From contig JBPCIO010000141.1 of the NCBI GenBank assembly GCA_051006215.1, forward strand, positions 50,455-114,454: DNA of 64,000 bases. Direction: 5' to 3'. Within the stretch, counting starts at the first letter, position 1; each line of letters opens with the position of its first letter. This document shows positions 1 through 60,898 of the stretch, piece by piece. The notes below the pieces were generated by a model. The model had not been told where the DNA came from. It saw only the letters and a list, made by a program, of their open reading frames with translations, and made no database searches. The stretch comes from Chloroflexota bacterium. GTDB lineage: Bacteria > Chloroflexota > UBA6077 > CF-72. The translations under genes were made by a program, and so were the position numbers.

Positions 1-1367
1 GTCCTGAGCTCAGGATCCCGCAACGTCTTCGCCAGCCAGATGGATCGGGCTATCGCAATCAGGGCCAGCACAAAGAATGCGATAAACCCGAATGCGCCAG
101 TCTTCATCCACACCCACAGGATGTCGTGATGGGATTCGTAGTTCCAGAATTCAAAGAAGGAAATGTCAGGCACGGTCACGACCTGCAGAAACGGCCGGCC
201 GAAGCCAATCCCGAGCAGTGGGTCGGAGGCGATGGTGGCCCGCACGTTGATTGCCTCTAGGTCTCGCCAGGCGTTCGAGGCTGCATCCCGAGGGTCGGGA
301 GTGCTGATCGAGCGTACTGCGCGGGCACCCTGACCCAGGCTACTGGTGTTAGTCCAGAACAATGGTAAATACACGCCACCCATCAGCAGCGCGGGTAACG
401 CAATAAACAGGAACGCCCTCCGATTGATGGTGATCAGCGAGAGCGTCAACACAGCGAAGGCGATCGCCACGGCGATGATGCCCGCTCGCCGCTCGCTGAC
501 AAGCATGGCGAGCGTCGCGGCCAGCGCCAGGAACGGCCCGACTACGCGCCGCCACTGCGGACCGCTTTTGAACACCTGTTGGGCAACCACCAGCATGACC
601 AGCAAGCCCCAGAACACCACCACCTCGTGCGAGAACCACTGCTCCTGAGCCGTTCCGAGCAGGCCGTTATTGATGAGCGCGAACTTCCGCCAGAGCCCCT
701 CGATGGCCGACAGGCTCACCAGGATGAAGACCAGGCTGGTGAGAGTGCGCACATGCGCTCGCGTGCGAATGGTGTTGGCTGCCAGGATGTATGCCAGGAT
801 CATGCTGAACAGGAAGCGGGACTCCCAGAACGAGTAATTCGGATTTCCGCCGCCGATGAGGCCTCGGACCAGGCCGAACACCAGCGCCCCACCGAACAAG
901 AGCACGGGAGTCCCGAACGCCCCCAGCCGCAAGTCAAACTGGCGGCGTAGGGTCGCGTGTGCCAACCACATCGCTGATGTCAGCAGCACCAGTAACTCCA
1001 TCGGGATGACGATGGCGCCGCTGATATTGAATGTTGTTTGGAGCGAGAAATTGATGTACCGACCTGGCAACATGAGCGGGTCCTGCGAGGTCCCGTCGAA
1101 GAACAGGATGATGCCAAACATCAAGTACAACCCCCAGCGGGGTTGTATGCAGACCGCGATCAGAGCAGCGACCACCAGGAGGCCTGCCACCGCAAATACG
1201 TCCATGCTCAGGACGAGCCGGGCCACAGCCAGGGAAAGTCCTATGACGAGCGCGGTGAGGACGACGAGCCGGCGTCGCTGGGTCGCGTCTAGCCAGCTGG
1301 TCGAGAAATGTCGCCCGTCGAAAGCGGCCGTCGTCAGGACCTTTGAGTCACTCACGTCATGTACCAC
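1..1367 (-). CDS. Wzy-like polysaccharide polymerase / O-antigen ligase-family multi-pass membrane protein (C-terminus runs off the window start)
   Basis: The reverse-strand frame is open from the window edge up to the in-frame stop at 1515-1517. The translation is highly hydrophobic with about 10 predicted TM segments and a Wzy_C/O-antigen-ligase-like loop (NYESHHDILWVWMKTGAFGF). It is absent from the ORF track because it reaches the window edge. The start is set at GTG 1367; it is uncertain and an upstream frameshift is possible. Confidence 0.55.
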   Translation of the reverse strand, partial: MVHDVSDSKVLTTAAFDGRHFSTSWLDATQRRRLVVLTALVIGLSLAVARLVLSMDVFAVAGLLVVAALIAVCIQPRWGLYLMFGIILFFDGTSQDPLMLPGRYINFSLQTTFNISGAIVIPMELLVLLTSAMWLAHATLRRQFDLRLGAFGTPVLLFGGALVFGLVRGLIGGGNPNYSFWESRFLFSMILAYILAANTIRTRAHVRTLTSLVFILVSLSAIEGLWRKFALINNGLLGTAQEQWFSHEVVVFWGLLVMLVVAQQVFKSGPQWRRVVGPFLALAATLAMLVSERRAGIIAVAIAFAVLTLSLITINRRAFLFIALPALLMGGVYLPLFWTNTSSLGQGARAVRSISTPDPRDAASNAWRDLEAINVRATIASDPLLGIGFGRPFLQVVTVPDISFFEFWNYESHHDILWVWMKTGAFGFIAFFVLALIAIARSIWLAKTLRDPELR

Positions 1368-1514
1368 GGGCGGAGGAAGTAGATCGCGGTGAGTGCCACG
1401 GCGATGGCGACGCAGAGCATGGCCTCTCGGCGTTTGAAATCCCTGGCGAACATCCCGACACCGGCTGCTGCGAACATCGCCAGCAGCATCATGCTCATGT
1501 CGGACTACCAGCCC

Positions 1515-2288
1515 TCACAAGCCAGCCAGACGAGACACCCAACCTGGGACAGACGACGCGCTGCCGTTCATCACTACTCCACGCAACTTGCCCGGCTCGA
1601 TCTGCTCGACCGCGCGTTGGTGCAACGCGATCGGCGTGATACCCGCGCGAACGACGCAGATCACGCCGTCGGCCAGGTCCGTCAGCAGGATAGAGTCGCT
1701 GTTGACGAGGATGGCTGGCAAGTCGAGGATGATTATGTCATAGCTCTGCCGCATCGCATCCACGACGGCAGCCATGCGACTGGAGCGCAGCGGTCGGCCA
1801 GGTTCATCCGCAGCCACACCGGCTGGCACGACGTGGAAATTCTCCAGGAATGTCGGCCGACAGGCACTGAGCAGCGGCTCCTCATGCACGAGGCAGTCGA
1901 TCAGGCCAGGGCTAGGGTGCGTACCGAAGTCCTCGGCCAGCACGGGGTGCTGCAGGTCGGTCTCGACCAGCAGCACGCGCCGCTCTGGGAAATCCTGAGC
2001 AATGGTTACCGCGAGCCCAACGCTGACGGTGGTCTTGCCCTCGCCCGCCAGGGCGCTGCAGACGGCCAGTACTTCTGACGAAAAACCAGCTCCAGCCCGA
2101 GTGTAGATACTCCGAAAGAGCTCGTCGGCATCGGGAAACACCCATTCCCGAGAGCCATCACTGCCATTCGCCAGTGCGCTGCTCCGCCTGGAGCGTAGCC
2201 AGGTGTCGGGTCGCGACTCGTCGTCCATGGGCGCCTCGAGCAAACCTGTAGCCGCTTCGCTATTGTCGGAATGGGCAATCGTCGTCAT
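1515..2288 (-). CDS. Tyrosine-protein kinase (BY-kinase) ATPase component, CpsD/CapB/EpsB-like
   Basis: Walker A GEGKTT and Walker B IIILDLPA are present, in a MinD/ParA-type P-loop fold typical of capsule/EPS BY-kinases. The ATG at 2288 overlaps the upstream stop (ATGA). Confidence 0.8.
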   Translation of the reverse strand: MTTIAHSDNSEAATGLLEAPMDDESRPDTWLRSRRSSALANGSDGSREWVFPDADELFRSIYTRAGAGFSSEVLAVCSALAGEGKTTVSVGLAVTIAQDFPERRVLLVETDLQHPVLAEDFGTHPSPGLIDCLVHEEPLLSACRPTFLENFHVVPAGVAADEPGRPLRSSRMAAVVDAMRQSYDIIILDLPAILVNSDSILLTDLADGVICVVRAGITPIALHQRAVEQIEPGKLRGVVMNGSASSVPGWVSRLAGL

Positions 2289-3373
2289 GACTTTGTCCCG
2301 ACGGCCGGCAATGCCATGCCAGCGGTTGCTCCGATAGCTCGGCGCGTGGCCCCGTATCGCAGCTTCTTCGGGACATTCTTGAGATTCAGGAGCGGAACTG
2401 ATCCAAGTAGTCGGAGTCCGGGTGCCAGATCCGTCTCGGAGCGGACCGACCGATCGCTTGCTACCAGGAGCACCATGAGCATCCCACTCAGCATGAGTCC
2501 GGCGATGGCAGCTGCGATCGGAAAAATGACGACCTTCTTGACTTGATTGGTGGGCGCTGTCGGAAGCTCGGGTGGGTCCAGCACCTGAAACCCGTACTGC
2601 AGGCCCTGCACTGACGCCACGGCATCCTGCTGTGCTCGGGTCAGCGCGGCTTCGGCGCTGTTGAAATCCAACTGCGCCGCCTGGACGTTGGACTGAAGGG
2701 CGCTCAGCTTTGGGTCGAGCATCGCGGCCGAGACCGCACCCGCGGCGCGGTCGGGCGAGAGGTCCGCACCATCGGCCTCGCGCGCTGATGTATACCGACG
2801 TAGGTCGCCACTGGCTTTGGTGAGGGCCTGCTGTGCGTCCTGCACCCGCGATTGATAGAAGTCAACTGCCACTCCGGCCTGGTCCGACTGGTCCGCTGCC
2901 GTTTTTTCCTGATAGGCATCCACAATCGACTTGCACAGCTCATACGAAAGCTGCGCAGTTGGTGCTGCAACCTTGATCACAAGGAGGTGCTCGCTCGTGT
3001 TCGGGCCAGTTCCTCCAGGTGCACTGCCGATGGTTACACCCTGCGCGATCAGCGCAGACAGGCGGGCTTGGCCTGCCACGGAGTTGTTCGCCGCAGCCAG
3101 TGAGGTGCGCGAGGCGACATCGGCGACGAAGGCGCGTGTGCGCAACAGTTCGCTCAACCGGCCCGTCTGGGTTTGCACCTCAGTCACCCACGGCGTAGCG
3201 GTGTCTTTGGTAGTCAGGTAGGCAGGCCGGTCAATCCAGACACTCACCGACGTCTCGTAGACGGGTGGGTTGGCCATCACGGCGAGCGGGCTGACAATGG
3301 CTGGAATGAGGACCGCCGGCAGTAACAGCAGCAATTTATGTTTGAAAAATGTCTCGAGTAGTTTCCTAATCAC
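2285..3373 (-). CDS. Polysaccharide co-polymerase / chain-length determinant (Wzz/CpsC-like) partner of the BY-kinase
   Basis: Short N-terminal segment, then a TM helix (LLLLLPAVLIPAIVSPL), a long coiled-coil periplasmic region and a C-terminal TM helix. The gene is immediately upstream of the kinase with an ATGA overlap. The start is chosen as GTG 3373, overlapping the upstream TGA (GTGA); the ORF track's ATG 3490 would overlap the upstream GT gene by 120 nt. Confidence 0.7.
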   Translation of the reverse strand: MIRKLLETFFKHKLLLLLPAVLIPAIVSPLAVMANPPVYETSVSVWIDRPAYLTTKDTATPWVTEVQTQTGRLSELLRTRAFVADVASRTSLAAANNSVAGQARLSALIAQGVTIGSAPGGTGPNTSEHLLVIKVAAPTAQLSYELCKSIVDAYQEKTAADQSDQAGVAVDFYQSRVQDAQQALTKASGDLRRYTSAREADGADLSPDRAAGAVSAAMLDPKLSALQSNVQAAQLDFNSAEAALTRAQQDAVASVQGLQYGFQVLDPPELPTAPTNQVKKVVIFPIAAAIAGLMLSGMLMVLLVASDRSVRSETDLAPGLRLLGSVPLLNLKNVPKKLRYGATRRAIGATAGMALPAVGTKS

Positions 3374-4503
3374 GCGGCCCTCCTGGAAGCTGGTCGAGCT
3401 ACCACTAGCTCTCCGATGAGGTCCAGTAGAAGTCGGTTGTTGCGCTGAGCATCGAATTTCTGTCGCGCCAAGGCGAACCCGGCTCGGCACATACGCTGTC
3501 GTCGGGCCGGGTCGTCGATCAAAGCAGTGAGCGCCGCAGATAACGCGGCATCATCGCCTGCAGGAATGATCAGGCCAGACTGCCCCGGCCGCACGCCTTC
3601 GGTCTGGGCGCCCACGTCGGTCGTAATCACGGGCAACGCCGCAGCTGCAGCTTCCATAAGTACCAGACCTAAACAATCGGCATTGGTTGGCAAGACGAAT
3701 AGGTCCGCTTCCACGAACAACCGTTGGAGTGCGGGGCTATTCGCCTGTAGACCCCGATGTGTGACGACATTCGGCTGCGCTGGCACCTCGAAGTTTGTCG
3801 CAATGTGGAGTTCACAGCGGCGGCCAATCGGGCCCCGCATAGCTTCCAGCAAGGCTGGGCCACCTTTGCGATGGAAGTCATTACCGACGAAGAGGATGCG
3901 TACCGGACCTTCGCGCCGCTCGCCCTCGGGTGCCGACAAGCGGGCATGCCCAACATCGAAAAAGGAGGCTGAGGCACCGGGCGCCAGTACCCGGACTCGA
4001 TGGGCATCGACTCCGTAGTCGTCGATAAGCGAGCGACGTGCCCACTCAGACCAGGTCACCAGGCCCGCGGCGGCATGAAAGGCGCGCCAATTCATCTTGT
4101 ATTTCTGACGATCGATGACACCCGTACCTGCTGGACGGTGATTGTAGTGTTTGCCCAACGTGTCATAGTTGATGGGTGTAGCGTCGAGCGAAATCAGGGT
4201 TGGCACACGACGCATCATGTTGATCGAAAACAGCGACGCGACCTGTGTGTGGAAGACGACGGCGTCGAGCGGGGTTCGCGCCATGGTCGCGTCCAGGGCC
4301 CGCCGAGCGCGCCAACTCGCCCGAACCGACCACGTGTTGCGTAACAGGGGCACGAAGCGCTCCGGGCCGCTCACGTCGAACGGGATCGGCAGCCAAACTG
4401 GATCAATATCGCCCTGCCGATCCGTGAGTTGGCGCAAGTTGTGATAGTGGGTCACGTGGCCGAGAGCCTGTTCCATCACAAACGCGATTCGAGTGGCCGG
4501 CAC
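3370..4503 (-). CDS. Glycosyltransferase family 4 (GT-B, Glycos_transf_1)
   Basis: 377 aa with a C-terminal GT4 motif region (FVLPTNADCLGLVLMEAAAAALPVITTDVGAQTE, E-X7-E like). GTG start at 4503. Confidence 0.8.
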   Translation of the reverse strand: MPATRIAFVMEQALGHVTHYHNLRQLTDRQGDIDPVWLPIPFDVSGPERFVPLLRNTWSVRASWRARRALDATMARTPLDAVVFHTQVASLFSINMMRRVPTLISLDATPINYDTLGKHYNHRPAGTGVIDRQKYKMNWRAFHAAAGLVTWSEWARRSLIDDYGVDAHRVRVLAPGASASFFDVGHARLSAPEGERREGPVRILFVGNDFHRKGGPALLEAMRGPIGRRCELHIATNFEVPAQPNVVTHRGLQANSPALQRLFVEADLFVLPTNADCLGLVLMEAAAAALPVITTDVGAQTEGVRPGQSGLIIPAGDDAALSAALTALIDDPARRQRMCRAGFALARQKFDAQRNNRLLLDLIGELVVARPASRRAA

Positions 4504-4650
4504 TACGCAGCCTCCCTACCGGCTGGTACCCAAGCCAGGTGCAAACAGCGGGAGCTGCACAGCGTTCCCTTGCACGCGCACACCCGCAACTCTTCCCTCA
4601 TCGCGTCCGACATTCTGGTGGCGACCGGCATCCGAGACCGTGTTTCCAGG

Positions 4651-4667
4651 GTTGCGATTCGGTTGAC
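4651..4667 (-). promoter_or_regulatory. Degenerate copy of the 11-bp-spaced direct repeat upstream of the GT4/Wzz/BY-kinase/Wzy operon
   Basis: Plus-strand GTTGCGattcgGTTGAC, which reads on the minus strand as GTCAACcgaatCGCAAC. It lies about 150 nt upstream of GTG 4503. Confidence 0.25.
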
Positions 4668-4696
4668 TGACGCGTCACCCACCTCGCGGCGCGTCA

Positions 4697-5227
4697 TTAT
4701 GGCCGCACCAACTGGACGATCATCCCGTCGAAAATCGACTTCCGGTCAGCAGGTGCGTCGAGCGCCAGCGAGACCAGAATGAGCAAGAGCACCGCCACCG
4801 CGGCTACCATAAGGAGTCCCAGAACGGCTGGCCCGTTCAACGCCGCCAACCGACCCTCCACTGGCCGCTGCTGGAGGGGCAGCCCACGGGCAGCGCCGAA
4901 TACGGGCGCCCGTGGAATGGCGCCGACGCGGCTGGACTGACGCATGCGTTCATGCCGGTGCGCGCGCAAACACTCCAGGTCGTAGCGTGCACGGCCGCTG
5001 GGATCACTCAACACTTCGTAGGCGGCGTTGAGCTGTCGGATGCGGCGTGCTGCCCCCGGCGCGGCATTCACATCAGGATGGTAAGAGCGAGCCAGCACAC
5101 GGTACGCCGCCTGGATTACCTCCTGGCTGGCCCGCGGACTGATTTCGAGAAGCTCATATAAATCGATCAGGTGGTGTGGTTCGGCGGTGCCAGCGGGCGG
5201 CTCCCGGCTTGGCACGTCGTGCGCCAT
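4697..5227 (-). CDS. J-domain (DnaJ-like) protein with a C-terminal transmembrane anchor
   Basis: N-terminal J domain (DLYELLEISPRASQEVIQAAYRVLARSYHPDVN ... AYEVLSDPSGRARYD) including the HPD tripeptide. A single C-terminal TM helix (VLGLLMVAAVAVLLLILVSLAL). The ATG overlaps the upstream stop (TGATG). Confidence 0.7.
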   Translation of the reverse strand: MAHDVPSREPPAGTAEPHHLIDLYELLEISPRASQEVIQAAYRVLARSYHPDVNAAPGAARRIRQLNAAYEVLSDPSGRARYDLECLRAHRHERMRQSSRVGAIPRAPVFGAARGLPLQQRPVEGRLAALNGPAVLGLLMVAAVAVLLLILVSLALDAPADRKSIFDGMIVQLVRP

Positions 5228-7134
5228 CAGGCTGGCCCGGCCATGACCATTTGACCCTCACTCAAGCCACTTACGATCTCCACGCCGGCGCCAGTCGTGA
5301 TGCCGACCTGTACGCTCACCAGTCGGCGGATCGTGCCGTCTTGAACTTCAACCGTATTGCGCCCGCCGCTCTGGTGAACTGCACTTTTCGGAACCACAAG
5401 GACGTCCTGTTTTGAGCCGAGGTTGACAGCCACCTGGACTGGCGTGCCCAGCTTGGGCACCTGGCTATCGGCCCAGGCTACGTTCAGGACCGCCGAGGCG
5501 TCCACGCTCCCATCTTGGGCTGCGGGCGTGACGCTGGCGAGCTGGGCTGGCACAGTTGTCGCCGATGCGCCCGTACCGATTTGAATACTTGCCGTCTGCC
5601 CCACGTTAATGCGCCCGGCTTGAGTGTCATCAAGGTCGACGCGCACGATCGGCGGCCCTGGCCTCGCCAGAATGACCACAGGTTTGGATGGGACCGGCAT
5701 TTCGCCTGGCCTGGCCCTAACCGAAACGACTGTCCCATCAAACGGCGCTCGCAGGTGCGTGTTTTCCAGCGACGCCTCTGCTGCCGCTACGTCTGCCTGG
5801 TCCTGGCTGATGACCTGCTGCAAAGGACCAAGGTCGAGTCCCGCGGCAGCCATCGCTGGTGTGACTTCACGCGCATTGTCCAGCACTACCTGGGCCGCAC
5901 GAACCTGATCCTGGGCCTGATTCAGCTCGGCCTTGGTCGGATGACTGTAGACCTCATCGCGTGCCCCCGTAAGCTGGGCGAGGCCGCGCTTCGCCGCCTG
6001 CATCTGGCGTTGTGCGGCGTCGATGGCGGCCTGATCTGGACCCGCTTGGAGCGCATCCAGCCTGTCCTGGGCGTTCTGCACGGTCGTTTGAGCGTCGATG
6101 ACTTTGAGCTGGGCAGCCTGCACGTCGACCTCCGCTGGGGGCTGCTTGAGCTTGGCGAGCTGAGCCTGGGCATTGTCCAGGCCGGCCTGTGCCTCCTGAA
6201 TCGCATTGTCATTCTGCATCTTGGCCACTGTGGAATCCGGTGCTTTAGGGTCGATCTTGGCGGCTTGGGCCAGCTGCAGCACGGACTGCGCCCGCAGCAC
6301 CGCCGTCGTCGCGGTGCGCACGGCCAACGCATCCGGGCCTCGGGTCAGAGCATCGAGATCAGCCTGAGCTCTGCTCAGCGTAAGCTGCGCATTTGCGACA
6401 TCGCGCTGAGCTGCGCGGATTGTATTGTCGTCCGGTCCAGCCATGGCCAGGTCCACCGCGTTTTGCGCGGACGCCATGTTCGTCGCCAGGTACTCAGTGA
6501 CGGCCGCGTCGGCGGCCTGCTTCTCGGTCGCTGATTTGCCAGCTTGTACCTTGGCCAGGTTCTCCTGGGCTCGGGTAACTGCAAGCTGCGCGTCCAGCAC
6601 TGCCTGCTGTTGCTTCTTCTGTTCGGCGGCCACACGCTGGGCGATCTCGTCCTGAGACGTTTGCGCCTGGGTTTGGGCTAGCGCGAGACTTGCCGTATCT
6701 ACCTGGAGCTTCGCACGCGCCGCGGCGAGCTTTGCCGGAATCTCGCCTTGGCTGAACTCAACCAGGATGTCGTCCTGCTTCACCGGTTGGCCAGCCTTGA
6801 CCTTCACATCGTCGACGATAGCGCGCCAGGCATAGTTGATCGGCTCCTGCGCCGGAGCGGTGGCCGTGCCGTCGAGAGCAAGTGTCTCGGTCAGGCTATT
6901 GCGCGTGACCGGGACAAATCGCACCCCACCCGTCCGCACCTTGACCGGGGTGGCCGTCGCGTTGGCCGTGTCTTGCCCGGCGATGGAGGCTGGTTGGCCT
7001 AGGCCGGCAGCGGTGTCTGAGTCCGCACCGGACTGCACCAGGGGCAAACTGATTGGGCCACATGCGGCAGAAGCGCCGATCGCCAGCAAGCTCAGAGCAG
7101 CCAGAGAGGTCGCCCTCCACAATCGAATAGCCAT
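5227..7134 (-). CDS. HlyD-family periplasmic adaptor-like lipoprotein with a very long Ala/Gln-rich coiled coil
   Basis: Lipoprotein signal with lipobox (LLAIGASAAC). Strong GAGGGG Shine-Dalgarno 9 nt upstream of ATG 7134; the ORF-track start 7218 is an N-terminal over-extension. The C-terminal beta-barrel/lipoyl-like region is typical of HlyD/membrane-fusion proteins. The central region has repeated GPD...AQ...LDAL hairpin-like units. Confidence 0.65.
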   Translation of the reverse strand: MAIRLWRATSLAALSLLAIGASAACGPISLPLVQSGADSDTAAGLGQPASIAGQDTANATATPVKVRTGGVRFVPVTRNSLTETLALDGTATAPAQEPINYAWRAIVDDVKVKAGQPVKQDDILVEFSQGEIPAKLAAARAKLQVDTASLALAQTQAQTSQDEIAQRVAAEQKKQQQAVLDAQLAVTRAQENLAKVQAGKSATEKQAADAAVTEYLATNMASAQNAVDLAMAGPDDNTIRAAQRDVANAQLTLSRAQADLDALTRGPDALAVRTATTAVLRAQSVLQLAQAAKIDPKAPDSTVAKMQNDNAIQEAQAGLDNAQAQLAKLKQPPAEVDVQAAQLKVIDAQTTVQNAQDRLDALQAGPDQAAIDAAQRQMQAAKRGLAQLTGARDEVYSHPTKAELNQAQDQVRAAQVVLDNAREVTPAMAAAGLDLGPLQQVISQDQADVAAAEASLENTHLRAPFDGTVVSVRARPGEMPVPSKPVVILARPGPPIVRVDLDDTQAGRINVGQTASIQIGTGASATTVPAQLASVTPAAQDGSVDASAVLNVAWADSQVPKLGTPVQVAVNLGSKQDVLVVPKSAVHQSGGRNTVEVQDGTIRRLVSVQVGITTGAGVEIVSGLSEGQMVMAGPA

Positions 7135-7263
7135 ATCGCCTAGTCCCCTCTCTCGCCGCCCATTACGCGACCTCACAGCCCCGACGCCGAGCGCTGTACT
7201 TCTCATTGGCACCTGCACGTGATGCTACGCACGGGCCGTTGAATGCGGTGATGTCGTGGATTG

Positions 7264-7287
7264 GTTGAGCATTGAGAATTGGTTGAG
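7264..7287 (-). promoter_or_regulatory. Triple CTCAAC repeat upstream of the HlyD-like lipoprotein / J-domain operon
   Basis: Minus-strand reading: cctCTCAACcaattCTCAATgCTCAACcaatcc. It lies 130-150 nt upstream of ATG 7134. Confidence 0.4.
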
Positions 7288-7304
7288 AGGCCAACGCTTC
7301 GGTG

Positions 7305-7931
7305 TCAGGCGGCGTACCACGCCGCGATGCGCGGAAACAGCGTATGCGCCAGCGCGGCGACATCGTCGTTTAGGCGTGGATCGAGTGGGTCCGTTTGAGC
7401 GGTCAAGTACAGTTTGTAGTAGTCGTTCGGGCGACCCAGGATGGCATCGAATACGGCCAGGCTCCAGGGCAGCGGCCCGTTACCGAGGAGTCCGCGGCGC
7501 TCCCCGTAGGCGTACATGACGAGCCAGTGCTGCTGGCCCTGCTCGGCTATCAGGCCGCTCACCCCGTCGCCAACGCCTAACTGCGGATCACCAGACGCCG
7601 GCTCCACGGTGTACCCGCCCCCCAGGAACGGCACCTCGGCCCCCGAGCCGTACAGCTTCGGCGCCTGGTTTGAAAGAACCGTCAACGTGGCCGTGCCGCG
7701 ATCAGAGCTACGGTACACACGCGAAACTTGACGCGTGGCCAAACCCGCGTGGTTGGTGTTTTCTTCGACGACTTCGCCGCCCACCGCCCACGGCTGGACC
7801 TGGTACAGGTCGTCGGCCACTGGCCAGCGCGCGGCTCCAGCGCCAGGAGGCTCGCCGGCAGCCGCGTAGAGTCCGGCGCTGATCAGTAGCCCTGCAATCA
7901 GAATGAAGTAGCGATGGTGGGGAGTTTGCAT
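7305..7931 (-). CDS. Exosortase-associated EpsI-like protein (putative)
   Basis: About 200 aa with an N-terminal TM/signal segment (YFILIAGLLISAGLYAAA). It lies immediately downstream of the exosortase gene and overlaps it by about 33 nt, the usual position of EpsI in exosortase loci. The assignment is by context and size, not by a diagnostic motif. Confidence 0.45.
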   Translation of the reverse strand: MQTPHHRYFILIAGLLISAGLYAAAGEPPGAGAARWPVADDLYQVQPWAVGGEVVEENTNHAGLATRQVSRVYRSSDRGTATLTVLSNQAPKLYGSGAEVPFLGGGYTVEPASGDPQLGVGDGVSGLIAEQGQQHWLVMYAYGERRGLLGNGPLPWSLAVFDAILGRPNDYYKLYLTAQTDPLDPRLNDDVAALAHTLFPRIAAWYAA

Positions 7932-8770
7932 CCAACGGTCCGGCTCAACACGAGCAGGCCCACCACAGCCAATCCAAACAGGACCAGGCTGGATGCGCCA
8001 TGAAAGAACCCGAGTGCAGCATCCTGGCCAAAGTCGGCGGCAACCACAAGGACCAGGGTCACACGCAGGGTATTGGCGAGGATCACCAGGGGCACCACGC
8101 CCAGGAACACGGCCAGCTTGCCTGGCAACGGTCCTCGAGTGGCATAGATCCAGAGTGCAGCCACGGACAGCAGAGAAAGCAGCGAGCTCATGCCTGAACA
8201 GGCCTGAGCCACCACGAACGCGTACTGGGGCGTGTCAGCTGCCGAATGCAGTAACAAGCCATCCCGAACCACGTCCAAGCCGATGGCATGTCCGGACAGC
8301 GCGGCGCCTTTGGCTGTCACGTCCTGCAGAGCGAATCCGACCGAATTGAGCAAGCCGCGGTACAGGCCTAGGCCAAACACCAGGAATGAGGCCGGAAATG
8401 CCACGATGCGTGCTGCGCGCCAGCCCCACAGGTAGACGACTACGCCGACCAGCAGCGGGCTGACTGCGAGTCCGGCCAGCGTGTTGATCCCGGTACGGCG
8501 GCTGACCAGTGTCACAAGGATCGCCCCGGCCACCATCAGCAGCCCTATGCCACTGCCCGCGCCGATACTGCGTCGTAGGGCGCCGCGGCGCCACCCCACA
8601 ATGGCTAGCGCAATTGGAGGTATGACAAACCCATATGTGAACTCCTCGTCTGTCGACCACACCTCGACCGCATGAGCGAAGGCCGGGTAGACCACGACGA
8701 CGAGCGCCAGGATCAGCCCCAGCCGGACGACTACTGCCCACCCACGGCCGCGGGCCAGGACGGTTGGCAT
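7898..8770 (-). CDS. Exosortase (EpsH/Xrt family) transpeptidase
   Basis: 290 aa, 8 predicted TM helices. Conserved N-terminal motif region (VWSTDEEFTYGFVIPP, variant of W..D..YSHG.L.P). Catalytic Cys in AQACSGMSSLL. Conserved Asn/Arg in ILANTLRVTL. ATG at 8770. Confidence 0.75.
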   Translation of the reverse strand: MPTVLARGRGWAVVVRLGLILALVVVVYPAFAHAVEVWSTDEEFTYGFVIPPIALAIVGWRRGALRRSIGAGSGIGLLMVAGAILVTLVSRRTGINTLAGLAVSPLLVGVVVYLWGWRAARIVAFPASFLVFGLGLYRGLLNSVGFALQDVTAKGAALSGHAIGLDVVRDGLLLHSAADTPQYAFVVAQACSGMSSLLSLLSVAALWIYATRGPLPGKLAVFLGVVPLVILANTLRVTLVLVVAADFGQDAALGFFHGASSLVLFGLAVVGLLVLSRTVGCKLPTIATSF

Positions 8771-8774
8771 AGGC

Positions 8775-10286
8775 TCAGTATGCGCCGCGGCTGGTCAGCA
8801 CCGCGGGGATCGTCCGCAGCAAGATCTCGAGATCAAGTGCCAGCGACCAGTTCCGGATGTAATGCAGGTCGAGTCGGACCATGTCATGGAACGGCACCTC
8901 GCTGCGGCCGCTGACCTGCCAGAGACCCGTCAGACCAGGCACGGCACGCAACCGGCCCAGTTGCCAGTCTTCATACTGCTCAACCTCGGCTGGGAGCGGC
9001 GGGCGCGGTCCAACCAGGCTCATCTCACCTTTGAGCACGTTCAACAACTGCGGAAGTTCATCAAGGCTCCAGCGGCGAAGGAGGCTGCCTACGCGTGTCA
9101 CCCGTGGATCGCGTCGCATCTTGAACAGTGGGCCAGACGCTTCGTTGTGCTGCCGCAGCGTCTCGAGACGATGCTCGGCGTCCGCACACATCGAGCGAAA
9201 TTTCAACATCTTGAAGCGCTGCCCGTCCTTGCCTACGCGATCTTGGCGGTAGAACACCGGTCCAGGCGAGTCAAGCTTGATCGCTACGGCGATGATCGAC
9301 AGGACCGGCGCGAGGACGATGAACCCCGCACTCAGCACGACCAGGTCCATTGCGCGTTTGACCCAGCTCACTGCCGCAGCCGGCATGTAGCCGATGTACT
9401 GCCGGCCGCCAAAGGTTTGGACATGGAAGCGTTCCGGCAGTCGTCCACCTAGCTCGGGCAGGAGTTTCACCTGCACGTGACGCCGAAAGCCGCGCGCCAG
9501 AACGCCGCTGACCTGTTCGCGGCGGCCGCTGGGTAGGGCGATGATGAGCTCGTCGACAGCGTACGCCTGGACCATATCTTCAAGTTGAGCAATCGGACCG
9601 AGCAGTGGCAACTCGAGAGTCTCGAGGTCACTGCCGTTATCCACGTAGCCGACCACCTCGTAGCCAGTCTTGAGCTCGTCGGCCAGTTCTCGGCCCAGGC
9701 GATTGGCGCCGACAATCAGCACCCGATTGGCTGGGAAGAGCGCGTCGCGGAGCACTTGATATAGGCGATGCGCAAGCGCTCGCCAGATGACCAATGCGGT
9801 CACCGAAATCGCCCACCCACTGACTAACCAGAGGCGCGAGAATGCCTGGTCGCCCAGGAAGTACGAGGCGCTGAAGCCCAGCACCAGCCCCGTAGAACTT
9901 GACGAGGCAATGCCCCGCAGGCGAAACGGCCAGGGCTGAGGTCGTTCGAGGTCGTACAGGCCGTGCGTAGCAAGGAGGGCACTCGTGAACAGCCCTACGA
10001 GCGCGGCCAGACGGATGTAGCGGTCCAATCCGAGCGTGGGCAAGCTGTCGTCGGCGGCGAACCGTCCGACATAAGCCAGCATGAAGGCACTCGCTACGAA
10101 GACCACGTCGGCGACGGCCACACAGGCACTGCCCAACCCGGGGAGCACCCGCCGGCGACGCCTGTTGATGGTTGCGCTGGAGCGTTGCTGAGGTGCCTCG
10201 TCGGCCCACACGCTCGGGTCGTCGGCACGTAGTTGGGCGGTGCTCATACTGGCGAGCTGTTGCGCGCCACACGGGTTGCTATCCAT
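8775..10286 (-). CDS. Polyprenyl glycosylphosphotransferase (WbaP/EpsB-like initiating sugar-phosphate transferase)
   Basis: N-terminal TM helices, a CoA-binding-like central domain, and a C-terminal bacterial sugar transferase domain (KFRSMCADAE...LDELPQLLNVLKGEMSLVGPRP). The start is uncertain: the ORF-track TTG is at 10403, and in-frame ATGs lie at 10286 and 10247. Confidence 0.8.
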   Translation of the reverse strand: MDSNPCGAQQLASMSTAQLRADDPSVWADEAPQQRSSATINRRRRRVLPGLGSACVAVADVVFVASAFMLAYVGRFAADDSLPTLGLDRYIRLAALVGLFTSALLATHGLYDLERPQPWPFRLRGIASSSSTGLVLGFSASYFLGDQAFSRLWLVSGWAISVTALVIWRALAHRLYQVLRDALFPANRVLIVGANRLGRELADELKTGYEVVGYVDNGSDLETLELPLLGPIAQLEDMVQAYAVDELIIALPSGRREQVSGVLARGFRRHVQVKLLPELGGRLPERFHVQTFGGRQYIGYMPAAAVSWVKRAMDLVVLSAGFIVLAPVLSIIAVAIKLDSPGPVFYRQDRVGKDGQRFKMLKFRSMCADAEHRLETLRQHNEASGPLFKMRRDPRVTRVGSLLRRWSLDELPQLLNVLKGEMSLVGPRPPLPAEVEQYEDWQLGRLRAVPGLTGLWQVSGRSEVPFHDMVRLDLHYIRNWSLALDLEILLRTIPAVLTSRGAY

Positions 10287-10446
10287 GCAAGCGGCGGCAG
10301 TCCGCTCAATAACCAGAGTGATCCCCAGACCACGCCCGTGGCCACCATGAGCAGGCCTGTGGTTAGCCCACCCGAGCAGTTTTCCTTGTCCTGCTCGTTC
10401 CAACCAAGGTCCCCAGACAGGCCGGCCGTTTGCAATCTCGCGTCCA

Positions 10447-11340
10447 TCATGAAGTCAAAGCGACCGCATCAGGCGGTTCACCTGAATCACTTGGGCCGGC
10501 CCATACGAGGCGGCCGAGCATCGGCAGGTCATTCACCAGGTATCGGCGCCAGAGGCGTTGCGGCTCACGGCTCAAGCGGAAGGCCCATTCCAGGCCAGCC
10601 CGCTGCATCCACAGGGGTGCACGGCTCACGGCGCCTGCCAGCAGGTCGAGTACGCAACCAACGCCCATGGCGATGGGCATCTGCAATTGCGCCTGGTGCT
10701 CGCGGATCCATACATCTTGGCGCGGCGCGCCAAGCGCGACGAACAGGAAATCGGCTCCCGAAAGACGAACCATGTCCACGATGCGCTGGTTCTCCTCGCG
10801 CTGCAGGGGCCCGATGGGTGGTGAATACGCCCCGGCGACGCGCAAACCCGGCTGCAGACTCTGCAATCGGCGACCCGCAGCCTCGGCTACGCCCGGCCCA
10901 GCGCCCAACAGGAACACGCTTCGATCTAGCTCGGCAGCCAGTCGGCAACTGGCGATGACCAGCTCAACACCCGCCACACGCTCGGGTAGGGGTTGACCTC
11001 GCAGACGCGACAGCCAAACCAGCGGCATGCCGTCGGCGACCGCCAGGTCCGCGGCATTCAGGGTCGCCCGGAACTCGTGATTGCGCTCAGCTATGCTCAA
11101 GAAATCGAGGTTTACGGTCACAACCTGATGTGCCTGGCCCGAGCGCGCAAACTCACCGATGCGCTCGACCGAGCCGGCCAGGTCAACCTGATCGATCAGG
11201 ACGCCGCCGAGCTCCACGCGGTTGCGCGAACTCTCGCCGCCTTCCGCATACCCCGCCACTTTGGGAGGTACCTCCGGCGACGGGCTCAGGAGTGCGTGCT
11301 GCGACAGCGTAGCTGTCGACACCACTGCCTCAGTCGCCAT
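10447..11340 (-). CDS. WecB/TagA/CpsF family glycosyltransferase (GT26)
   Basis: Characteristic GT26 core (VTVNLDFL...ADGMPLVW...FLLGAGPGVAE...ADFLFVALGAPRQDVW). ATG 11340 is preceded by a GGAGGA SD; the ORF-track start 11373 is less likely. Confidence 0.8.
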   Translation of the reverse strand: MATEAVVSTATLSQHALLSPSPEVPPKVAGYAEGGESSRNRVELGGVLIDQVDLAGSVERIGEFARSGQAHQVVTVNLDFLSIAERNHEFRATLNAADLAVADGMPLVWLSRLRGQPLPERVAGVELVIASCRLAAELDRSVFLLGAGPGVAEAAGRRLQSLQPGLRVAGAYSPPIGPLQREENQRIVDMVRLSGADFLFVALGAPRQDVWIREHQAQLQMPIAMGVGCVLDLLAGAVSRAPLWMQRAGLEWAFRLSREPQRLWRRYLVNDLPMLGRLVWAGPSDSGEPPDAVALTS

Positions 11341-11518
11341 GCTCAATTCCTCCTCTGGCGGTGGACCAACCACGCGCTCGTACTTGAAGCCTCATTGTTT
11401 GGTCGGGCGGTGGGGCATCCGTACAGCCGAAGTTACGATTTGGTTGCGCCACTCTTGCCGTTGTCCCGAGTGCTGCAATGGCTTCTCAACCCGCGCCCAA
11501 GGCGCCGGCGTACACGTG

Positions 11519-12832
11519 CTACTCAGGACTGGCGCCAGCTGCCGTCCGCGCGGTGCGGACCCAGGCCGTGGTGCGCGTGCTGAAAATCGAGACGGCGTAT
11601 AGCCCGACTTTCCAGACCACGTAGGCTGGCGCGATGCCCAGGGTCAGATAGATGCGAAACGGCGCGCGCACAAGCGCCAGGGCGGCCACGACATACAGCA
11701 CGTAGCCGACCAGGCACGCCGTCGCCACGCCGGCCAGGGCTGGGCTACCCAAGAGCCAGCTGCCGATCGCCGCTAGCGCGCTCATCGCAAATGGCACGGA
11801 CAAGGGCGGAATCAGCTGTTCGAGCGCTGCATCGACCTGCATCCAGGAACGTCGCCGCACACCCAGCCACAACAACCTCAGCACATGCTGACGAACCAAC
11901 TGCAACCGGCCACGCTCCCAGCGCGCGTTCTGGCTCGCCGACTGGCGCAGCGTCACCGGCATATCCGCCTTGACCCACGTCTCGGGCGCGAACTCGACAG
12001 GAATGCCGTGTTCGACCAGCGCCAGGTGAAACTCGACGTCCTCCGCGAGGCTGAACCATCGCCATGCGAAGCGCTCGACGATGGCAGCCGTAAAGCACAT
12101 GCCGTTACCCTTGAGGCCAGCTGACAGGCCGAACGTCGAGCGCCCGAGCGGACGCAAGTAGTGCACGGCTGAAAGGGCTGCGTAACGCAACCCGGCCACA
12201 GACGAGTGGTGCAGGTTGAGTACCGAGTAGTACGCCTGGACAGCCTGTGCACCCGCCTCCAAGCGGGCGTTCATGCACCGCAGGAAGTTCTCGGCCACGA
12301 CGGTATCGGCGTCGACCACGACGTAGGCGTCATATGCCTGGCCCTCGTCTTGGAGCTGCTGAATCAACCAGCGCAGGGCAAAACCTTTGGCGCGTTCCGC
12401 CGTGTCCCAGCGCTCGTACACCCGAGCACCGAGTGTGCGCGCGATCGACGCTGTCGCGTCGTTACAGTTGTCGGCAACAACGCACACGTCGACCGACTCG
12501 GGCGGATAGTCCAGCTGACCAATGCTCGTTAGCACGCGCGCGATTACGCCCTGTTCGTTGTGCGCCGGCACCAGCACAGCGAATCTCCTGATTTCGGCAT
12601 TGGCCGCGCCGCGCAGCTGGCGAGGTCGCGCAACCAGTGCCGCCGACGTGAGGAACAGCAGATACCCAAGTAACAAGACCTGTGAGGTAATCAGTGCCGA
12701 CAGCAGGGCAGTACTCACGAGTGAGACATACAGCACGATGGTTGGTACGGCTTTCTGCGGGCTACGCCGACGGCGCCGGGGCCCACATTGGCGCGAGAGC
12801 TTCTCGTCCGGCCGTGGCGTCAACCAGCTCAC
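11519..12832 (-). CDS. Membrane-embedded GT2 glycosyltransferase (processive synthase-like, PgaC/IcaA/cellulose-synthase-like architecture)
   Basis: N-terminal TM helices. GT2 catalytic core (VLVPAHNEQ ... VVDADTVV ... QxxRW-like QNARWERGR). C-terminal TM helices. The start is uncertain; the ORF-track start overlaps the upstream gene by about 70 nt. Confidence 0.7.
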   Translation of the reverse strand: MSWLTPRPDEKLSRQCGPRRRRRSPQKAVPTIVLYVSLVSTALLSALITSQVLLLGYLLFLTSAALVARPRQLRGAANAEIRRFAVLVPAHNEQGVIARVLTSIGQLDYPPESVDVCVVADNCNDATASIARTLGARVYERWDTAERAKGFALRWLIQQLQDEGQAYDAYVVVDADTVVAENFLRCMNARLEAGAQAVQAYYSVLNLHHSSVAGLRYAALSAVHYLRPLGRSTFGLSAGLKGNGMCFTAAIVERFAWRWFSLAEDVEFHLALVEHGIPVEFAPETWVKADMPVTLRQSASQNARWERGRLQLVRQHVLRLLWLGVRRRSWMQVDAALEQLIPPLSVPFAMSALAAIGSWLLGSPALAGVATACLVGYVLYVVAALALVRAPFRIYLTLGIAPAYVVWKVGLYAVSIFSTRTTAWVRTARTAAGASPE

Positions 12833-13925
12833 GCAGCCGGGCTGCGAAGTGATCCACGGTCAACAAGCGCTCGACCGTCCGGCGGCCCGCGGCGCCGAGC
12901 CGGTGGCGTTCCTCAGGCTGGTCCAGCAGGTGTGTGATCGCCCGCCGCAGAGCCGCCGGATCCTCGGGCGGCACGTAGTAGCCAGTCGGCTCGAGCGCGA
13001 CGCCGGCCAGCTCAGCGAAAGTTCGCACCAGGCTGGGTGGACGCACGCGTGGCTGGGCGCCCCGGGTGGCGGCGCGGCGATCCTCAATCACATCCGTCTG
13101 CCCCAGGCTGTGCGTCACGATGACCGGTTTGGCCATCGCCATCGCTTCGAGGATCGTGGTCACCCCAGCTTGAAAGTCGATGTCGTCTAGCGGCACGACG
13201 ACGATGCTCGATCGGGCATACAGGGACCGCAGCGCAGGATAGTCAAACTTGGAGACGTGCACGTTCACAGGCAGGGCGGGGCCCGCGGCGGTGTTGCGAC
13301 GTTTCGACCAGTGGCTGGCGGCGCCTATCACTACTTCCACGTCCAGGCCGTCCACAGCGCTTACAAGCGTGGGATAATCCCGGAACTCCAGGCCGGCGCT
13401 GCAAATCAAGCGTTCCTCGACCCCGGCCTGCGGGCACCAAAAGTTCGCGTCGACCTGGTACGGAATCAGCGCGAGCTGCTGGGCGGGAATTCCAAGGTCC
13501 CGAATGGCGAGGTCGTATTGCACGCGAGAATGCAGCGCGATGCAGTGGATGTGCGAGTGGGCCTTGAGCCACTTGAAAAACGGACGCTTCTTGGCCGCCG
13601 TCAGACGGTGCCCGATCGTCAAATGAGCCACTTTCGAGCGCGTCGCTTTCAGCAGGAGAGCCAGCGGAATCCCGATGTGCTCACCGTCGGTGACGATCAC
13701 GTCAAAGTGGGCCCGCTCACGGAAAGCGAGCCAGGCCTGCAAGACCGGCACGCCAATCCACCGAGCTAGGCGCCCCAGCAGGCCCGGTCCCTGGACATTC
13801 GAGCGATCGATGGTCGCCGCACTCAGCTCCTTGGCCAGCACGTCGTAGTCTTTGCGGGGCCCGGAGCCAAGGGGAGCGCCGACGTGGTCAGCACTGATCA
13901 CAAGAAGAACTCGCGGATTTGGCAC
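12762..13925 (-). CDS. Glycosyltransferase family 4
   Basis: The GT4 C-terminal domain is evident. The start is GTG 13925, directly after the upstream epimerase stop at 13928. The first ~160 aa of the ORF-track entry are an artefact overlapping the epimerase gene. Confidence 0.75.
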   Translation of the reverse strand: MPNPRVLLVISADHVGAPLGSGPRKDYDVLAKELSAATIDRSNVQGPGLLGRLARWIGVPVLQAWLAFRERAHFDVIVTDGEHIGIPLALLLKATRSKVAHLTIGHRLTAAKKRPFFKWLKAHSHIHCIALHSRVQYDLAIRDLGIPAQQLALIPYQVDANFWCPQAGVEERLICSAGLEFRDYPTLVSAVDGLDVEVVIGAASHWSKRRNTAAGPALPVNVHVSKFDYPALRSLYARSSIVVVPLDDIDFQAGVTTILEAMAMAKPVIVTHSLGQTDVIEDRRAATRGAQPRVRPPSLVRTFAELAGVALEPTGYYVPPEDPAALRRAITHLLDQPEERHRLGAAGRRTVERLLTVDHFAARLRELVDATAGREALAPMWAPAPSA

Positions 13926-13927
13926 CC

Positions 13928-14878
13928 CTAGCCCATGACCGCGACAGGCACCGCAGCGGGCACCCCGACTAGCTCGGCTAGCTTGCCAAGCGGATCCAGC
14001 AGTGGTTCGACCAGCAGGATCCGTCGCATGCGCTCGACATCGGCGATGAAGCGGGTCACTTCCATGTGACGCGCCTGCTCCAGGTGAATCTTCGGTTGGC
14101 ATTCCGCCAGGCGGCCGATCCGTCGAGCAAGATCGATGATGCGCGTGCCTGTACCGCTGCCAATGTTGATCGGTGGAATTGGCCCCTCGAATGTGCCGGC
14201 ACGTACCAGCGCCTCGACTACCTGGCCCACCCACACAAAGTCGAGCACCTGCTTCCCTCCGAAAACGGACATCTGTTGCCCGGCCTGCGCTTGAGCTAGC
14301 CAGGTCGGGATGACCCGGCCAACGTCTCGCAATCCGTAGACGCTGGCCAGCCGCAGAATCACGGTCTGCAGCCCGAACTCGCGACGGAAGGCTCGGCAAT
14401 ACACCTCCCCAGCTACTTTGCTTGCGCCGTAAGAATTTATGGCCAGCAAGGGCGAGTCCTCTTCGACAGGCAACTCGACCGCCTCGCCATACACATCCCG
14501 AGACGAAGTGAAGACGACACGTGGCACACCGCTCTCGACGGCCGCCCGCAGGACGTTGAAGGTGCCACGGACGTTCGTCTGGAAGGTGTATTCGGCGTCG
14601 CGCACTGCACCCATCAGGGTTGATTGCGCCGCCAGGTGGTAGACAAGGCTGGCTCCGCGCACCGCCTGGGAGACGGCGGACTGGTCCTGCACGTCGCCCT
14701 CGATGAGCTCAAAGGCCGGCTCACTGGCCAGATGGGCCACGTTGTCCAGGCGTCCGCGCGAGAGGTTGTCGAACCCGACCACATTGCCTGCACCATCGGC
14801 TAATAGGCGATCGACGAGGTGGCTCCCGATGAACCCGGCCCCGCCGGTTACTACGATCCTGGGGACGAGTCGCGACAT
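13928..14878 (-). CDS. NAD-dependent epimerase/dehydratase (extended SDR, UDP-sugar 4-epimerase-like)
   Basis: N-terminal Rossmann motif VTGGAGFIGSHLVDRLL and a YxxxK motif (YGASK). Confidence 0.85.
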   Translation of the reverse strand: MSRLVPRIVVTGGAGFIGSHLVDRLLADGAGNVVGFDNLSRGRLDNVAHLASEPAFELIEGDVQDQSAVSQAVRGASLVYHLAAQSTLMGAVRDAEYTFQTNVRGTFNVLRAAVESGVPRVVFTSSRDVYGEAVELPVEEDSPLLAINSYGASKVAGEVYCRAFRREFGLQTVILRLASVYGLRDVGRVIPTWLAQAQAGQQMSVFGGKQVLDFVWVGQVVEALVRAGTFEGPIPPINIGSGTGTRIIDLARRIGRLAECQPKIHLEQARHMEVTRFIADVERMRRILLVEPLLDPLGKLAELVGVPAAVPVAVMG

Positions 14879-21393: not shown

Positions 21394-21398
21394 CCAGC

Positions 21399-29516: not shown

Positions 29517-29610
29517 CGGCCACATGGAAACCCACGTCCCATCGGCCTCGCGTCGGCCATTACCACGTTTGGCCACCGCCGGCACTCCTAGCCGGCGTGC
29601 TGTCCCAGTC

Positions 29611-32012: not shown

Positions 32013-32178
32013 GCCTTGCCCTCCAGAGCTTTACCGTCGCACGAACCTGCTCGCGCAATCCCACGCTCGGAAGCGTTGCAAGCGCGCGTCTTGACCGCTG
32101 TTGGAGGTCGGTTGCGAAGTAGTTGGCCTGCAAGTCTCTACCGTGGGTCAACCAGCGCTCTACGGACGGCCGAGCAGC

Positions 32179-37708: not shown

Positions 37709-38031
37709 GACTGCTGCTCCCCCCTCTCCGGATCGGAGAAACGCTATGTACCCCGTGCTTGCATGGTCCACCTGAGTCAAGCACCTAATCCTACGCGGTC
37801 GCGGCGCTGCGTCATCACGATATGCTCGGGCTGGCTCGGCCTCGCCCTCGTCACCGGAGCGGCACAACCCATCTCCAACTGGTAACGGCGAGGCCGGCCA
37901 GGACGCCGAGCAACCAACATTCGACCGTAGGGTTGACGGAAGCTCTATGAGCGTGGCGCCAAACACAGGGGGTGTGTGCGATTATTTGAGTACGCAAGCT
38001 TGCTCACGCAGCCTTGCCTATAGGAGGAACG

Positions 38032-56463: not shown

Positions 56464-56485
56464 GTGGGGAATCCTTGTCTTTGGG

Positions 56486-59780: not shown

Positions 59781-59973
59781 AACTCACCTGAATCCCCATC
59801 CGTCCTCAACCATCACGTTTGCCTCGCCATGCAACTCTCTACCTTCCGTGGCCACTGGCGCACGCCCAACCGAGGAGGCCCAAGAAGCGGGTTGATCATG
59901 CTTAGTACCTACACCTGGATACGTTTGCCAAGCCGATCCGGTTCAGACGCTCAGCCACGGTTGCGGGCAGACC

Positions 59974-60789: not shown

Positions 60790-60898
60790 GCACCCGGGCG
60801 GCCCTGCGTCCGGCTGACGCCAACTGGCAACCCAAGTACCATCCTGCTGTTAGCATGACGCTGAGCGGGTACGCTGGTTGAGTCGGAGGTTTGCTGAG

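Follow-up and report, generated by a model that had tools for sequence, protein, structure and literature searches.

The 64,000-nucleotide stretch of DNA analysed here (the window; positions 50,455 to 114,454 of contig JBPCIO010000141.1, assembly GCA_051006215.1) comes from a Chloroflexota bacterium and has a G+C content of 63.5%. It encodes, within a polysaccharide island, an exosortase of 290 residues (7898..8770, minus strand), an EpsI-like protein of 208 residues (7305..7931, minus strand) and a candidate substrate of 241 residues (38032..38757, plus strand), which consists of a signal peptide, a repeat spacer and a C-terminal tail of a type that we call TPEL after its signature residues. 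In environmental bacteria, exosortase systems are believed to attach proteins to the surface of the cell or to the biofilm matrix, by a chemistry which is unsolved.

The product of 7898..8770 is a true exosortase, judging from its model scores and conserved residues, and this bears out what an earlier note made from the sequence alone had claimed. In profile searches the protein scores 157.7 bits with the Pfam model PF09721 (cut-off 25.7), 119.5 with the general exosortase model TIGR02602 (cut-off 105.55) and 58.2 with the signature model TIGR04178 (cut-off 23), and it has at least seven hydrophobic segments. The motifs on which the earlier claim was based are present where they had been placed: the N-terminal motif VWSTDEEFTYGFVIPP spans residues 37-52 (8615..8662), ACSGMSS holds Cys191 (codon 8198..8200) and LANTLRV holds Asn233 and Arg236 (Arg codon 8063..8065). 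His257 (codon 8000..8002) lies in FFHG. In an alignment of the window protein with 31 relatives (55-86% identity), Cys191 (CSGM), Asn233 and Arg236 (AN-x-x-RV) and His257 (FFHG) are invariant in 32 of 32 sequences, as are W38, E43, F44 and G47 of the N-terminal motif; none of these orthologues has lost the Cys, the Arg or the His. These three residue types form the inferred catalytic triad of the exosortase family (Haft, bioRxiv 10.1101/2023.06.07.544157), and Cys191, Arg236 and His257 are the putative catalytic residues of the window enzyme. The homologues (326 at E ≤ 1e-5) carry the source name "Chloroflexota bacterium", and an identical protein (P0001, 100%) is recorded at NCBI as [quoted passage not shown], where MAG stands for metagenome-assembled genome.

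This Chloroflexota clade is without a named Xrt subtype. Among the NCBIfam models of the named subtypes, none reaches its cut-off on the window exosortase. The best-scoring one is XrtA (TIGR03109), with 135.1 bits for a cut-off of 208; the others include XrtW (112 for 425), XrtD (105.8 for 400), XrtV (105 for 313), XrtB (80 for 275), XrtC (51.6 for 300) and XrtG (TIGR03110, 16.3 for 102.75). The PDB holds no entry related by sequence to the clade.

The start of the gene at 7305..7931 shares 34 nt with the end of the exosortase gene, and the same 34-nt overlap is found in two related loci (L001 and L003). Its product has an N-terminal membrane anchor and, from orthology and gene order, is the probable EpsI-like partner of the exosortase. 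The score with PF11984 (EpsI/DUF3485) is 24.5 bits, just short of the cut-off of 26.1, and there is no NCBIfam match; the orthologues in relatives (53-57% identity), including those of L001 and L003, are flagged PF11984:EpsI. The gene lies directly downstream of the exosortase in all the relatives with readable DNA (L001-L004, L010, L011 and 16 metagenome loci). The overlapping EpsI-like gene of about 200 residues that had been proposed is thus supported by the overlap, by the orthologues and by the position kept in relatives.

The signal-peptide protein at 38032..38757 had been described as ending in a Pro-Glu-X tripeptide, a hydrophobic helix and an Arg cluster, and all these elements are present. 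The signal peptide (residues 1-25, MQHRLISMAAGVALLLTAGGGAAHA) ends in AHA and is followed by Q. The spacer of 176 residues contains 19% Asp, 14% His, 14% Thr and 12% Pro, and the region 38120..38594 is composed of 24-nt (8-residue) tandem repeats of two types, HDATPDPM and THDVNPGA. The C-terminal tail, SATPELDSLFLFGTGATGAAGYGLMRVRAGRPKQSTADDSES, includes the sorting domain (38635..38721, plus strand), in which TPELDS precedes a Gly-rich hydrophobic helix, LFLFGTGATGAAGYGLM, and the basic cluster RVRAGR. An acidic extension follows and reaches the stop codon (38755..38757). A His/acid-rich tract is known in the PEP-CTERM zinc protein ZepA (PMC10957091), and from this likeness our guess is that the His/Asp spacer might bind metal. 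A glycosyltransferase gene of the GT-C type (38774..40051) begins 17 nt past this Thr/Pro-rich substrate gene; from this proximity, the sorted protein may be glycosylated.

The repeats raise the question of whether 38032..38757 is a gene at all. The 24-nt tandem repeats make up the region, the opposite strand also has two long open reading frames (ORFs; 37945..38619 and 38004..38591), and the search with the full-length repeat protein gave no match. An open frame made by GC-rich repeats would leave the exosortase without a substrate in the window. However, the empty search is the expected effect of the HMMER composition filter on a protein of such low complexity, the G+C content at third codon positions is 0.76, like that of the neighbouring genes, and the non-repetitive tail agrees with the family profile at each residue. 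When the tail only was used as the query, the search retrieved 19 proteins of 73-89 residues (E down to 6.5e-8), all built alike, with a Gly/Asn-rich spacer between a signal peptide and the same tail. In one of them, P0122, the signal peptide is near-identical to that of the window protein, SMAAGVALLLTAG. Because it shares both signal peptide and tail with P0122, the window protein belongs to this family, from which it departs by the kind and the greater length of its low-complexity spacer, and an artefact of the repeats is hardly credible.

The family defined by the tail is much larger. A 40-position tail profile was scored against 1.84 billion cluster representatives and matches 460 of them at E ≤ 1e-3 (155 at E ≤ 1e-10). 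In 150 of the 150 representatives listed out of these 460, which are proteins of 39-766 residues, the profile matches at the C-terminus. The domain comprises about 30 residues, [A/Q]-T-P-E-L-[D/G/S]-S-x-x-L-F-G-x-G-x-x-G-x-x-G-Y-x-L-x-R-x-R-A-R-R-R. Over 165 tails, the conservation (in %) is [A/S/G] [A/Q] T99 P100 E100 L98 [D70 G19 S7] S98 [L/I/V] x in the signature and the positions next to it, L100 F96 G96 [T/S] G98 xx G97 xx G81 Y99 x L x in the helix and R98 x R98 A85 R R90 R in the basic cluster, which is usually followed by Q or D and acidic residues. Six residues of the signature are conserved at 98% or more. The third position of the Pro-Glu-X tripeptide is L in 98% of the tails, M in 1%, V in less than 1% and P in none, and the Pro of PEL lies 28-45 residues from the C-terminus (median 32). 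The Pro-Glu-X tripeptide is therefore real, but it is part of a longer conserved signature, T-P-E-L-[D/G/S]-S. The earlier note had also called the PEL tripeptide and the acidic extension of the window protein atypical; the acidic extension (usually RRRQD and acidic residues) is typical of the family.

The tail is found on many proteins which are otherwise unrelated. An N-terminal hydrophobic region is present in 98 of 122 full-length-like carriers, and BLAST clustering distributes 66 N-terminal parts of at least 100 residues into 29 unrelated groups. The domains carried (DUF11, CHRD, NIDO, CARDB, HAF repeats, PKD and TIG) are typical modules of surface proteins. The features that characterise tripartite C-terminal sorting signals have been listed (Haft, bioRxiv 10.1101/2023.06.07.544157, section 5). 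Those found in the TPEL family are the C-terminal location, at least three near-invariant residues in the signature, a hydrophobic helix, a basic cluster, N-terminal signal peptides, carriers that are unrelated outside the tail and association with a sorting enzyme, since an exosortase is encoded directly downstream in many loci.

The tail is not covered by existing models. No model of Pfam or NCBIfam matches the tail of the window protein, even at E ≤ 10, and there is no curated model for this tail in Pfam or in NCBIfam release 20. The PEP-CTERM model PF07589 matches 0 of 147 representatives at E ≤ 0.01. TIGR02595, the NCBIfam model of the PEP-CTERM domain, is outside the 25 most frequent NCBIfam matches of the tail proteins (E ≤ 0.1), which means that it matched at most one of them. 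In weak, sub-threshold matches (E 0.002-0.05), the tail region aligns to the C-terminal ends of models of full-length PEP-CTERM proteins (floc_PepA, 205-259 of 261; NF038129, 150-193 of 194; MHFG, 203-260 of 260; and the XrtJ target model).

The link between the tail and the enzyme was examined with a stringent 20-codon DNA pattern for the tail, for which we estimate a chance expectation of about 0.1 matches in the genome scan. The scan, in which 185,579 species are represented, gave 10 matches, 10 of 10 in Chloroflexota MAGs, one of which is named Candidatus Limnocylindria. Three of these MAGs, all incomplete, have two matches each, so that two copies per genome is a lower bound. The tail matches and the exosortase homologues thus occur in the same phylum. 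In two of the genome loci (L010 and L011), the tail gene lies between the priming transferase and the exosortase of an orthologous polysaccharide locus and ends 1-12 nt before the exosortase gene, whose product is 55% (L010) or 66% (L011) identical to that of the window. In a third one (L016), with no polysaccharide genes around, 146 nt separate the end of a tail-bearing ORF from the gene of the exosortase P0013. This ORF (9400..9855, plus strand, of CAVTWN010000001.1, GCA_963738395.1) is uncalled in the public record. The L016 exosortase sits among transposase genes, outside polysaccharide loci.

The same pattern gave at least 120 loci in metagenome contigs of the Joint Genome Institute, 118 of which have a recognisable tail ORF. 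In 28 of these 118 listed loci, the tail ORF is followed on its own strand by the gene of an exosortase homologue (50-74% identity), at a distance of -17 to 143 nt. The proportion is 25 of 90 among the listed loci in which the downstream sequence reaches 300 nt or more and 20 of 60 among those in which it reaches 1 kb or more. The priming transferase is also visible in 19 metagenome loci among the matches listed. In two further relatives (contigs of P0002 and P0085), exactly the position of the tail gene is occupied by an unannotated gene of 232 or 212 residues, known by its position alone.

Thus, many relatives have a tail-bearing gene inserted between the priming transferase and the exosortase. 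In the window, the gene of the priming polyprenyl glycosylphosphotransferase (8775..10403, minus strand; 415 bits with TIGR03025, cut-off 295.55) ends 4 nt before the start of the exosortase gene. Since these 4 nt are all there is at the operon position, the one tail gene of the window is that of the repeat protein, 30 kb away; the enzyme and the tail are both encoded within one 64-kb window.

Several observations weigh against the idea that the exosortase processes these tails. A six-frame translation of the window contains the tail a single time, and the gene that carries it does not adjoin that of the exosortase. The helix of the tail, being Gly-rich, is weakly hydrophobic on the Kyte-Doolittle scale. 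About two thirds of the tail genes have no adjoining exosortase; they occur in ordinary housekeeping contexts, as is the case for dispersed PEP-CTERM genes. No tail gene is present in the 20-kb stretches around the exosortases of L001 and L003. A first suspicion, based on these two loci, that the tail is unrelated to the exosortase was overturned by the scans that started from the tail.

The tail could also be a plain C-terminal membrane anchor, or a signal for another enzyme such as a sortase. Sortase genes are indeed found about 1-2.5 kb from tail genes, at about 1 kb in L005 (8372..8956, minus strand) and at about 2.3 kb in L009 (1997..2740, plus strand), most tail genes do not adjoin an exosortase gene, and Chloroflexota are generally regarded as single-membraned. 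However, in L005 a regulator gene separates the tail gene from that of the sortase, which is encoded on the other strand, and the sortase of L009 follows a 451-residue secreted protein which ends in a different hydrophobic anchor with RRRR. Two separate C-terminal sorting systems therefore seem to operate in these Chloroflexota. No LPXTG-like motif is seen in the tail logo, and the helix begins directly after the signature, with no spacer, which is the layout of exosortase signals and not of sortase signals. Moreover, an exosortase gene starts within 150 nt downstream of the tail gene, on the same strand, in 28 listed metagenome loci and 3 genome loci, for which chance is insufficient among thousands of genes per genome. 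A sortase was therefore rejected as the TPEL-processing enzyme, and it is very unlikely that the tail is not an exosortase signal.

We consider it likely that the window exosortase sorts TPEL-tailed proteins in Chloroflexota, as a divergent relative of the XrtA/PEP-CTERM system. The exosortase and its sorting signal are supported as an undescribed variant, as the earlier note had suggested: no Xrt model reaches its cut-off, no PEP-CTERM model matches the tail, and tail gene and exosortase gene are adjacent in 3 genome loci and 28 listed metagenome loci. The terms PEL-CTERM and TPEL-CTERM were not found in the literature searched, nor was a paper on exosortases in Chloroflexi or Chloroflexota. 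The TPEL system is not a new kind of system, since exosortase subfamilies that each have a signal flavour of their own are known in large number.

By analogy with work on exosortases and archaeosortases, the following mechanism can be proposed. The targets would be exported by their N-terminal signal peptide through the Sec pathway and held transiently in the cytoplasmic membrane by the tripartite C-terminal domain, the Arg cluster being on the cytoplasmic side. The exosortase, a predicted polytopic membrane cysteine protease or transpeptidase (Cys191, Arg236, His257), would recognise the T-P-E-L-[D/G/S]-S signature on the outer side of the membrane and cut off the helix. The target would then be passed to an acceptor of the surface or the matrix, probably tied to the polysaccharide of the surrounding island, and the co-translated EpsI-like protein may act as the partner of the exosortase. 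The His/Asp-repeat protein at 38032..38757 would be one target and further ones would be scattered around the genome; in many relatives, another target, of about 200-250 residues, would be encoded directly upstream of the exosortase.

The exosortase and EpsI genes belong to a conserved block, 3..14878 on the minus strand in the window, whose order, which relatives share, is epimerase, GT1, GT2, WecG, small membrane ORF, priming glycosylphosphotransferase, exosortase, EpsI, HlyD-like protein, DnaJ-domain protein, GT1, Wzz-like protein, BY-kinase, a 48-residue ORF with two helices and Wzy. All the following genes of the block are on the minus strand. The HlyD/membrane-fusion-like protein (5227..7218) has a long coiled coil and matches PF13437, and TIGR01730 with 86.9 bits, below the cut-off of 94.9. 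It is followed by a membrane protein with a DnaJ domain (4697..5227; PF00226, 72.2 bits). These two genes are conserved downstream of EpsI in the loci of relatives, and in this clade the locus always includes the HlyD-like protein (630-730 residues) and the DnaJ-domain protein, neither of which is part of the described XrtA system. Further downstream are the Wzz-like chain-length determinant (2285..3490; TIGR03007, 48.3 bits for a cut-off of 278.85), the BY-type tyrosine autokinase (1515..2288; PF13614; TIGR03018, 121.4 for 230.65) and a Wzy-type polymerase, cut by the window edge (3..1337; PF04932, 34.4 for 31.7; NF041870, 65.2 bits), a Wzy_C gene being found at the same position in relatives.

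Two small ORFs of the block are also conserved. One, of 47-48 residues, has two hydrophobic helices (MSMMLLAMFAAAGVGMFARDFKRREAMLCVAIAVALTAIYFLRPWYMT) and lies between the BY-kinase and Wzy in every relative examined (1352..1498, minus strand, in the window; 17197..17343 in L001; 17264..17407 in L003). It has no family match and was rejected as a mini-substrate, as it carries no TPEL-type tail. The other lies between WecG and the priming transferase (10244..10450, minus strand, in the window; 8173..8451 in L001; 32..301 in L004). It has 66-92 residues as called in relatives, and its C-terminal half is hydrophobic (GSLWLLSGLPPLAWIATRV in the window).

The island runs on to about 52.8 kb with more glycosyltransferases (GT1, GT2, GT4), membrane glycosyltransferases of the GT-C type (PMT_2, GT87), acyltransferases, methyltransferases, a DegT aminotransferase and an amidotransferase. 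The GT-C-type-like genes (29497..31179, 32101..33993, 38774..40051 and 47965..49626, plus strand) have PMT_2/GT87 matches, some of which are weak. The glutamine-dependent amidotransferase, of the asparagine-synthase type (20925..23294, plus strand), matches PF00733, and TIGR01536 with 450.6 bits (cut-off 267.1). Its best match is the amidotransferase model of the XrtA/PEP-CTERM system, TIGR03108, with 548.9 bits for a cut-off of 816.9, and its true start is probably near residue 159 of the ORF. The Wzx/Wzy exopolysaccharide island that had been proposed is thus real as a polysaccharide island, and its Wzy is supported by PF04932, but the Wzx part is not confirmed: no model of a Wzx flippase matched any gene tested in the window, and the Wzx candidate (24461..26005) has no match in Pfam, NCBIfam or the PDB. 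The island is flanked by a probable secreted protein of 780 residues (52897..55239, minus strand; weak MG2 and BsuPI matches), two two-component systems (55780..60789) and a probable secreted protein of 620 residues (60878..62740, plus strand). Neither of the two secreted proteins carries the tail.

These companion genes bear on another explanation, according to which the window contains the known XrtA/PEP-CTERM system in another phylum, that is, an XrtA orthologue and an ordinary PEP-CTERM tail with a trivial change of Pro to Leu. XrtA is the best subtype model for the exosortase, models of the XrtA system are the best matches of the amidotransferase, the chain-length determinant and the tyrosine kinase, and the ends of PEP-CTERM protein models give weak alignments with the tail. 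The adjacency of EpsI and the context of a polysaccharide locus are also as described for the exosortase/PEP-CTERM system (Haft et al. 2006, PMC1569441). However, the scores with the XrtA-system models are all far below the cut-offs (135 for 208, 549 for 817, 48 for 279 and 121 for 231 bits), and the searches with the PEP-CTERM models gave the negative results reported above. Leu is present in 98% of the tails at the third position of the signature, where PEP-CTERM has a near-invariant Pro (PMC1569441), and the signature extends to T-P-E-L-x-S. The PrsK/PrsR/PrsT set did not turn up, in an analysis that included no search aimed at the Prs genes. The question is a matter of naming, and the failed membership tests argue against filing the system under XrtA/PEP-CTERM, an assignment that we regard as unlikely. 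Since its companions match the XrtA models best, at scores far below the cut-offs, the window system appears as a distant cousin of the XrtA system and not as a member of it.

If the TPEL proteins are sorted by this divergent exosortase, as we think likely, the system is of interest in several respects. The signal is unusually sharp, with 30 residues of which a dozen are nearly invariant, and a target often shares an operon with the enzyme. Among the hosts, which are abundant soil Chloroflexota, one is named Ca. Limnocylindria. Their surface biology is essentially unknown, and one new profile could annotate hundreds of "hypothetical" proteins as sorted surface proteins. An enzyme with its adjacent target is a compact test case for the question of the exosortase acceptor, possibly in a cell without an outer membrane. 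In view of the single membrane usually attributed to Chloroflexota, the host phylum is noteworthy, as PEP-CTERM has been described only in bacteria with an outer membrane (PMC1569441). A bolder reading, which is possible and yet doubtful, is that of a new, phylum-restricted sorting system in a single-membraned lineage, whose exosortase would be the first to have a clearly defined cognate signal in bacteria other than those with an outer membrane. In that case, proteins would be fixed to the polysaccharide matrix or the cell wall instead of being routed to the outer membrane, the operon-encoded target of about 200-250 residues would be a structural partner of the polymer, and the variable spacers (Gly/Asn-rich, or His/Asp-rich here) could tune properties of the matrix such as metal binding.

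Among the known systems, XrtA/PEP-CTERM (PMC1569441; TIGR03109, TIGR02595, TIGR02914) resembles the divergent Chloroflexota system in many parts. The exosortase of either system is polytopic, Cys, Arg and His being invariant, and its gene is followed directly by that of an EpsI-type partner, in a Wzy-type locus with a priming transferase, a chain-length determinant, a tyrosine kinase and an asparagine-synthase-type amidotransferase. In both, the targets have a signal peptide and a tripartite tail, in which the signature abuts the helix and the Arg cluster follows, and many of them are small and of low complexity. On the other hand, the signature is T-P-E-L-[D/G/S]-S and not (V)PEP, the 30-residue tail is far more conserved here, the PEP-CTERM domain models do not match, and the models of the XrtA system all remain below their cut-offs. 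The host is a Chloroflexota, whereas the bacteria in which PEP-CTERM has been described all have an outer membrane (PMC1569441), about a third of the tail genes lie directly upstream of an exosortase, and the locus adds the conserved HlyD-like and DnaJ-domain proteins.

XrtJ/PExPT-CTERM (TIGR04200), XrtD/VPLPA-CTERM and XrtC/VPDSG-CTERM are precedents for systems in which the signature has its own flavour and the target gene lies beside that of the enzyme. Five TPEL proteins give weak matches with the XrtJ target model, TIGR04200. Unlike the enzymes of the dedicated pairs, the window exosortase misses the XrtD and XrtC cut-offs (105.8 for 400 and 51.6 for 300), and the TPEL relation is both one-to-one, with the adjacent target, and one-to-many, with dispersed targets whose N-terminal parts are unrelated.

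PepA of Zoogloea, an Asn-rich PEP-CTERM protein of flocculation (NF033554, floc_PepA), resembles the small TPEL proteins (73-140 residues), in which the tail follows a signal peptide and a Gly/Asn-rich spacer of low complexity, and an asparagine-synthase-type gene is found in the window island too. Nine representatives match the C-terminal part of the floc_PepA model weakly, with at most 17 bits for a cut-off of 80. The spacer of PepA is rich in Asn, whereas that of the window protein is rich in His, Asp, Thr and Pro.

XrtG (TIGR03110) is comparable in that it is an exosortase homologue of bacteria without a classical outer membrane (Gram-positive), but the window enzyme scores 16.3 bits with its model for a cut-off of 102.75. 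As far as we know, XrtG is without an assigned cognate signal at the C-terminus of a target, whereas the signal of the TPEL system is clear.

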